A stretch of DNA of 64,000 bases from Escherichia coli (lineage in GTDB: Bacteria; Pseudomonadota; Gammaproteobacteria; Enterobacterales; Enterobacteriaceae), in NCBI RefSeq assembly GCF_030013205.1, contig NZ_CP122648.1. One strand, given 5' to 3'. Each line of letters starts with the position of its first letter. The first letter of the stretch is position 1. Shown piece by piece: positions 40,445 through 40,480 of the stretch. The position numbers and the translations under genes were made by a program. Below the pieces are notes generated by a model. That model did not search any database and had not been told where the DNA came from. It was given only the letters and a program-made list of their open reading frames with translations.

Positions 40445-40480
40445 GATCGATGACAACGATCGATACCTGTTTTATCGATC
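40445..40480 (-). promoter_or_regulatory. Three clustered GATC sites: the Dam/OxyR phase-variation switch of flu (agn43)
   Basis: GATC at 40445-40448, 40458-40461 and 40477-40480 within 36 bp, about 220-250 bp upstream of the flu start; matches the known agn43 arrangement. Confidence 0.6.

Follow-up and report, generated by a model that had tools for sequence, protein, structure and literature searches.

The window, a stretch of 64,000 nucleotides of Escherichia coli DNA, carries the epigenetic switch of the agn43 (flu) gene in its common, non-K-12 form. The analysis establishes its sequence elements, their homology and conservation pattern, the RNA family of the leader and the deletion history of the locus. 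In the reading that we favour, with a probability of about 0.8, Dam methylation and OxyR binding would compete to turn this promoter on or off, and the gene behind it is dead. An earlier note on the same DNA had proposed an agn43-type Dam/OxyR switch upstream of a truncated flu, and this proposal is upheld by the GATC spacing of K-12, a pair of OxyR half-sites, the leader RNA and the presence of all three GATC sites, at the same offsets of 0/19/32, in 112 of 119 natural loci. The system is a known one in a common allele form, placed ahead of a lineage-specific pseudogene already flagged by PGAP; it is not a new system. The switch, its leader and its upstream neighbour comprise the following features.

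40600..41472, minus strand: YeeP-like GTPase gene, conserved as the neighbour upstream of agn43; in K-12 the yeeP pseudogene lies there
40509..40514, minus strand: TTGCGT, the putative -35 hexamer for agn43, aligned with K-12 TTGTCC, 17 nt upstream of the -10
40486..40491, minus strand: -10 hexamer TAGAAT, the same in K-12 and in nearly all alleles
40478..40492, minus strand: predicted upstream OxyR half-site ATAGAATAAAACGAT, 8/10 specified positions, overlapping the -10 and GATC-I, conserved across alleles
40477..40480, minus strand: GATC-I; the agn43/IsrC transcript of K-12 starts at the base aligned with its G; kept in 116/119 natural loci
40458..40461, minus strand: GATC-II, kept in 115/119 natural loci
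40446..40460, minus strand: predicted downstream OxyR half-site ATCGTTGTCATCGAT, 8/10, holding GATC-II and GATC-III, 13 nt apart
40445..40448, minus strand: GATC-III, kept in 119/119 natural loci
40246..40482, minus strand: agn43 leader RNA, the IS102/IsrC small RNA (Rfam RF00124), found by cmscan
40249..40286, minus strand: intrinsic leader terminator, a 12-bp stem (8 G-C pairs) with a 4-nt loop, followed by TTTTTTATTC

Scanning of the 64-kb window locates GATC at 40445-40448, 40458-40461 and 40477-40480, that is, three sites within 36 bp. The flu gene is encoded by the minus strand and begins with the ATG at 40227, and the triad lies 218-253 nt upstream of this ATG in the transcriptional order GATC-I (40480..40477), GATC-II (40461..40458) and GATC-III (40448..40445); the coordinates that the earlier note gave for three GATCs in 36 bp upstream of flu are exact. 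By itself, the cluster is statistically unremarkable. The window contains 236 GATCs against 232 expected, showing no enrichment, and its dinucleotide shuffles contain on average 0.57 triads spanning at most 36 bp, with one or more in 43% of shuffles. Since such a triad is common by chance, the identification of the switch rests on homology and architecture. A second triad, GATC-N5-GATC-N5-GATC with a 9-nt period, occurs at 24742-24763 within the mdoG/opgG coding sequence; regulatory significance was rejected for it on account of this location, and it is probably a chance occurrence, 0.57 being expected per window.

The Dam/OxyR mechanism of K-12 is documented (PMC3764049, PMC4872104, PMC13337833), including the work of Henderson & Owen 1999, Haagmans & van der Woude 2000, Waldron 2002 and Wallecha 2002 as relayed in PMC3764049 and PMC13337833. 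In an ungapped alignment with K-12 MG1655 anchored on TAGAATAAAACGATC, the three GATCs fall in register at offsets 56, 75 and 88. Around the switch, 69 of 130 bases are identical to K-12, and the GATC spacing of 19/13 nt is the same. A MAFFT alignment with K-12, which placed a 13-nt gap inside the switch, was discarded in view of the perfect register of the anchored ungapped alignment. The offsets 0/19/32 are shared by the window, K-12 and six other alleles, and the alignments indicate that the 19/13-nt spacing is conserved across two diverged allele types. The window and K-12 also share the place of the switch between a yeeP-type GTPase gene and flu, the -10, the downstream half-site ATCGTT-nnn-ATCGAT, the leader terminator, the ribosome-binding site and the start codon, and the order GTPase gene-switch-IS102 leader-flu is that of K-12 and of every annotated E. 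coli record that was listed or fetched among the 4,021 matching ones. The two differ in leader length (253 nt in the window, 222 nt in K-12), in the gene controlled, which is a 295-codon remnant in the window, and in the 15 nt between GATC-I and GATC-II, which read GATAAAACAGGTATC in the window and AATATCTATTTTATC in K-12. As a consequence of this last difference, the left half-site of the N7 register of K-12 is not conserved in the window.

The -10 TAGAAT and the 17-nt spacer are conserved, and the transcript start can be placed by reference to K-12 isrC, whose 5' end lies 6 nt downstream of the -10. The -35 TTGCGT has 3/6 consensus matches and is near-invariant across 64 unique common-type alleles; a generic promoter scan of the window did not list the agn43 promoter, the -35 being too weak (3/6). 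With respect to OxyR, the earlier note had named an absence of half-sites, together with uniform methylation in every read, as an observation that would speak against the switch, and two half-sites of 8/10 are found. Their centres are 32 nt apart (N17 spacing), and the pair covers the -10 and all three GATCs. This 8+8-of-20 pair is the sole and top one in the 64-kb window, and 30 dinucleotide shuffles yielded 0 such pairs. The N17 register, which is the geometry of reduced OxyR, was adopted after seeing the sequence and has support in the literature: the half-sites of opvAB are centred at -148/-116 and -75/-43, a 32-nt spacing termed canonical for reduced OxyR (PMC4856963). The N17 pair is thus a supported reading of a predicted OxyR site and no proof of binding. 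With the classic consensus at N7 spacing, nothing in the window reached 16/20, and the N7 register of K-12 scores 10/20 in the window versus 14/20 in K-12; an N7-spaced site was set aside for the N17 geometry because of these poor scores in the window.

Two further elements were observed during this search. An 11-bp inverted repeat, AACGATCGATA ... TATCGATCGTT at 40455-40483, links the contexts of GATC-I and GATC-II, corresponds to the first leader hairpin in the RNA and coincides with the inner half-site arms. In the mdoG-mdoC intergenic region, ATAGATCGGATCGAT (25784-25798, minus strand) matches the OxyR half-site at 9/10 positions and includes two GATCs that overlap each other; the mdoG start lies about 50 nt further downstream, and the N17 partner half-site reaches 5/10.

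Similar arrangements are known from Salmonella, where the gtr and opvAB switches likewise have GATCs in OxyR half-sites and are independent of the OxyR oxidation state (PMC2909390, PMC4856963), as is the regulation of agn43 (PMC4856963; PMC2909390). Specifically, gtr contains GATC pairs 13 nt apart inside single OxyR half-sites (PMC2909390), as GATC-II and GATC-III are arranged in the window, and the 32-nt half-site spacing typical of reduced OxyR is shared with the Salmonella switches (PMC4856963). The systems differ in that OxyR can both activate and repress gtr and opvAB, through three or four half-sites that are occupied in alternative ways, whereas agn43 has one repressing site overlapping the promoter and the transcript start.

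The switch is widespread in the species. A region of 401 nt comprising the switch, the leader and the start of flu is matched in 4,019 of 5,426 complete E. coli genomes and, among the matches listed, always has a GTPase gene on one side and an Ag43/Cah gene on the other. The 106-nt core is found in 3,460 of the 5,426, mostly at 90-95% identity. Strains EC556 and B771 have a 401-nt region identical to that of the window ahead of a longer flu copy, and SMS-3-5, with a full-length gene, has the same GTTGTCATC element as the window. The chromosome of K_EC180 has a second copy of switch and leader elsewhere.

Natural variation was assessed in metagenome contigs through the leader hairpin, which lies about 200 nt downstream, so that the selection of alleles is independent of the switch. 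This gave 120 hairpin loci, 119 of them with enough upstream sequence; a scan for the hairpin in the species-representative genome collection gave no match. The 119 loci divide into 100 of the common type, to which the window belongs, and 19 of the K-12 type. GATC-II is lost in four loci, GATC-I in three and GATC-III in none. The seven loci concerned (L015, L024, L027, L074, L098, L104 and L128) read GATG or AATC at a lost GATC-I and AATC at a lost GATC-II, and two of them, K-12-type alleles with GATG at site I, also have a flu truncated to 223 codons; in these seven alleles the switch may be naturally locked or biased. Across 64 unique cores of the common type, variation is confined to the sequence upstream of the -35, the -35/-10 spacer and the downstream half-site at its positions 5-9. 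Of the latter, 5 and 7-9 correspond to n in ATAGnTnnnAnCTAT, while position 6, a specified T, is changed in some alleles. In these cores the -35, the -10, all GATCs and the other specified half-site bases are invariant or nearly so. The window departs from the common-type consensus at eight positions (-50, -48, -20, -16, +26 to +28 and +46), all of them polymorphic or unspecified in the consensus.

Transcripts from the switch would begin with the IS102/IsrC leader. The match to RF00124 scores 73.3 bits (gathering score 46, E = 3.8e-12) and covers model positions 1-206 of 206, so that the leader resembles this family in its full-length match and in its extent from the switch to the intrinsic terminator; its central part has diverged from the K-12 sequence. 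In K-12, isrC is annotated at the homologous place, starting at the G of GATC-I and ending in the T-run that follows the leader hairpin; the window has the same terminator stem, and its T-run is where K-12 IsrC would end. Expression of flu has been described as governed by IsrC antitermination (PMC5389530). The start site of agn43 in EC958, determined by RACE, is reported 228 nt upstream of the ATG (PMC4807369); the leader lengths sampled are 222-223 or 252-254 nt, and neither puts that start at GATC-I. The leader terminator, at 40286..40259 where the IS102/IsrC RNA ends, sits between the switch and all coding sequence. This was overlooked in the earlier proposal that the switch controls the ORFs behind it.

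Based on these elements, we propose the following mechanism. The segment 40445-40514 on the minus strand would act as a sigma-70 promoter (-35 TTGCGT, -10 TAGAAT) initiating at or beside GATC-I, and an OxyR tetramer in the extended geometry of the reduced form would occupy the two half-sites centred 32 nt apart. In the OFF state, bound OxyR would obstruct RNA polymerase and protect the three GATCs from Dam; in the ON state, methylation by Dam after replication would prevent OxyR binding and allow transcription; and either state would be inherited until the next replication-coupled competition. ON transcripts would make the leader RNA of about 235 nt, and most are expected to stop at the leader terminator. 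Read-through would reach the dead flu, yielding a signal peptide and an N-terminal passenger fragment that would not cross the outer membrane, and further read-through would reach the three-part remnant ORF and possibly cbeA-cbtA. The genes dam and oxyR are core E. coli genes outside the window and are assumed to be present. The recognisable cis elements of the switch all appear intact and, since the trans factors are encoded by core E. coli genes, switching most likely persists. We infer continued OxyR-Dam competition, persisting ON/OFF switching and some read-through to the downstream ORFs.

The gene that this promoter serves is broken. The remnant and the genes after it are listed below.

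39340..40227, minus strand: flu/agn43 remnant, made up of an extended signal peptide of 52 aa, some 236 aa from the N-terminal end of the passenger, and 7 codons out of frame before a stop
39357..39365, minus strand: deletion junction with the short microhomology TAACC
38883..39413, minus strand: chimeric ORF of out-of-frame flu codons, antirestriction residues ~16-105 and the last 68 aa of a 147-aa gene
37999..38833, minus strand: cbeA-cbtA type IV toxin-antitoxin pair, from the annotation, in the same orientation as flu

The flu ORF has 295 codons, with the stop at codon 296, and its residues 1-294 are 87% identical to residues 1-294 of K-12 Ag43. Against NCBIfam auto_Ag43 (NF033177) it matches positions 1-291 of 948 with 580.7 bits, below the cut-off of 1200; PGAP annotates flu as a pseudogene with the C-terminus missing. 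The remnant retains the first quarter of the passenger and has neither autochaperone nor beta-barrel, and the truncation noticed earlier is thereby confirmed. Sec can export such an autotransporter fragment to the periplasm, while the cell surface is out of its reach. The "short secreted fragment" of the earlier note therefore stands as far as a signal peptide and possible periplasmic export are concerned, and falls as regards secretion to the surface, there being no autochaperone or beta-barrel.

Compared with EC556, the window is without 1,935 bp (L002 7245-9179). In that strain the stretch comprises the remainder of an Ag43 pseudogene that had itself been truncated before, a remnant of DUF932, 90 nt of intergenic sequence and the opening 40 nt of the antirestriction gene. 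Past the junction, the flu frame runs on for 7 codons to its stop (TAA 39342-39340). The flu-antirestriction junction is present in 14 of the 5,426 complete genomes, all from pig (ETEC strains, O139:H1 strains and K_EC180), and represents a clonal event. Decay of the agn43 locus is common: of 99 natural copies whose flu ORF ends inside the contig (from the 119 loci), 14 stop early. Among individual cases of independent decay, E2348/69 (L005) has the leader hairpin joined straight to an internal AIDA-repeat segment, and E7-1N7 (L008) has an IS200C element in place of the -35 and half of the -10, with all three GATCs kept.

Behind the junction, the antirestriction frame differs from the flu frame, and the native start and first 15 residues of the antirestriction gene are gone; the deletion also took the upstream region of this ORF. 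PGAP starts the chimeric ORF at a GTG at 39386, inside flu-derived sequence, 46 nt before the flu frame stops. Since the two reading frames differ, a fusion protein that continues in frame from flu into the antirestriction part was rejected. The fused ORF suggested previously thus fails as a translational fusion and is plausible only as an object of transcriptional control, given that genes downstream of agn43 are co-transcribed in UPEC (PMC4807369). Its antirestriction character holds at the level of homology: Pfam PF03230 Antirestrict (KlcA/ArdB type) matches positions 1-37 of 92, an incomplete domain. With this remnant alone, an antirestriction function is doubtful. A search of the chimeric ORF against NCBIfam gave no match, while Pfam and PHROGs were matched. 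The intact island (L069 789-2719) contains the antirestriction gene (161 aa), radC, yeeT, the 147-aa gene and cbeA; the 147-aa gene (PHROG 5162, unknown function) supplied the last 68 residues of the chimeric ORF, with radC and yeeT deleted. The chimeric ORF was thus a fusion already before the flu deletion, itself a product of earlier deletions.

No strong minus-strand terminator was predicted by the terminator scan between the flu remnant and cbtA. In EC958 and CFT073, agn43-yeeR-irmA forms a single OxyR-repressed operon, and OxyR represses agn43 121-fold, together with the co-transcribed downstream genes, in non-K-12 strains (PMC4807369). The window shares with this operon (Moriel et al. 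2016, PMC4807369) an OxyR-repressed promoter that would drive downstream genes, and differs from it in having neither yeeR nor irmA; the remnant ORF and then cbeA-cbtA follow instead. Rho-dependent polarity after the premature flu stop could limit or prevent downstream transcription.

Over its whole length the window is collinear with E. coli K_EC180, which was isolated from a pig in Korea, at 99.98% identity. A run of core genes (flg, mdoGH, csg, ghrA) ends at a tRNA-Ser at 37416-37502, after which a decayed genomic island begins with DUF4942/DUF5983 remnants, cbtA, cbeA, the "antirestriction protein", the flu remnant and the YeeP-like GTPase gene, and continues with hsdM-S-R, insertion sequences, a second hsdM in truncated form, hhe and a group II intron. 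In the neighbourhood of flu, at least 4 independent deletions can be counted. At 37652-38002, adjoining the tRNA-Ser, DUF5983 and DUF4942 fragments have been fused by a further deletion, and cbtA-cbeA is the sole intact gene pair in the tRNA-Ser-proximal part of the island. The segment 41736-64000 is a defence island in decay: besides a complete type I restriction-modification system (hsdM-S-R) it holds the anti-phage gene hhe, a second hsdM that is truncated and fused to a pseudogene for an HNH endonuclease, the insertion sequences ISKpn26, IS30 and IS1, and a group II intron within an IS3 element. Among the core genes, mdoC (opgC, 26130-27285) is annotated as frameshifted in the near-identical K_EC180.

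Three other readings of the locus were weighed against a switch that still operates ahead of a dead gene. The triad could be a chance cluster without regulatory meaning, as the frequency of triads in shuffled windows (43%) and the triad inside mdoG might suggest; this has practically no probability left, for the sites occupy the same position as the characterised K-12 switch, the switch core recurs in 3,460 of 5,426 genomes, the GATCs are near-invariant while adjacent bases vary, and the OxyR half-site pair is unique in the window. The register with K-12, the OxyR pair and the allele conservation already refute it. A less remote idea is that the switch is inactive in this allele, locked ON or OFF by allele-specific changes and preserved as a relic in sequence only. 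The core is just 90-95% identical to most E. coli copies, the T at +27 and the A at +46 are rare or absent among the 100 sampled alleles, the OxyR score in the N7 register is low, and selection on a switch ahead of a pseudogene should be relaxed. Against this, every difference falls at a naturally polymorphic position or one that the OxyR consensus leaves unspecified, and the GATCs, the -10, the -35 and the specified half-site bases are intact. The GTTGTCATC element is shared with SMS-3-5, where the gene is full-length, and EC556 and B771 carry the identical 401-nt region before a longer flu copy. We consider a locked switch unlikely.

A working switch might alternatively have acquired a new job, namely heritable ON/OFF control of the chimeric ORF and/or cbeA-cbtA, with subpopulations differing in DNA uptake or growth; this takes the idea of the earlier note to its strong form. 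The antirestriction ORF has lost its own upstream region and start codon, so that any expression would have to come from upstream; no strong minus-strand terminator intervenes from the flu remnant to cbtA; co-transcription downstream of the OxyR-controlled agn43 promoter has a precedent (PMC4807369); PGAP calls the chimeric ORF a normal CDS; and the junction has become fixed in a single pig-associated lineage (14 genomes). Such fixation is, however, what clonal inheritance predicts for closely related genomes. The ORF itself keeps only Antirestrict positions 1-37 of 92, has an unrelated fragment at its end, is read in a frame other than that of flu and uses a GTG start 46 nt before the flu stop, and the leader terminator would attenuate whatever transcription is aimed at it. 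The succession of at least 4 independent deletions is a pattern of decay and not of selection, which makes capture of the switch by the remnant ORF or the toxin-antitoxin pair unlikely; we give a new job a small chance. The stronger version, in which the deletions of the pig lineage rewired the Dam/OxyR promoter into heritable ON/OFF control of both the chimeric ORF and cbeA-cbtA, so that subpopulations would differ in their growth state or in how well they tolerate incoming DNA, strikes us as quite improbable; if true, it would be a natural example of promoter capture by a phase-variable element.

The likeliest status of the locus is that of an agn43 switch that still flips and has no useful output, as a stage in the decay of the island. 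As a discovery this carries little weight, since the system is among the best-characterised bacterial epigenetic switches and the allele type occurs in about two thirds of complete genomes. The comparison of 119 alleles supports the extended half-site reading, with 32-nt spacing, for the common non-K-12 allele, and the locus would provide a natural case of a bistable promoter still attached to decaying cargo. It also advises caution with methylome reports of unmethylated GATCs upstream of agn43, as the gene behind them is dead in some strains.
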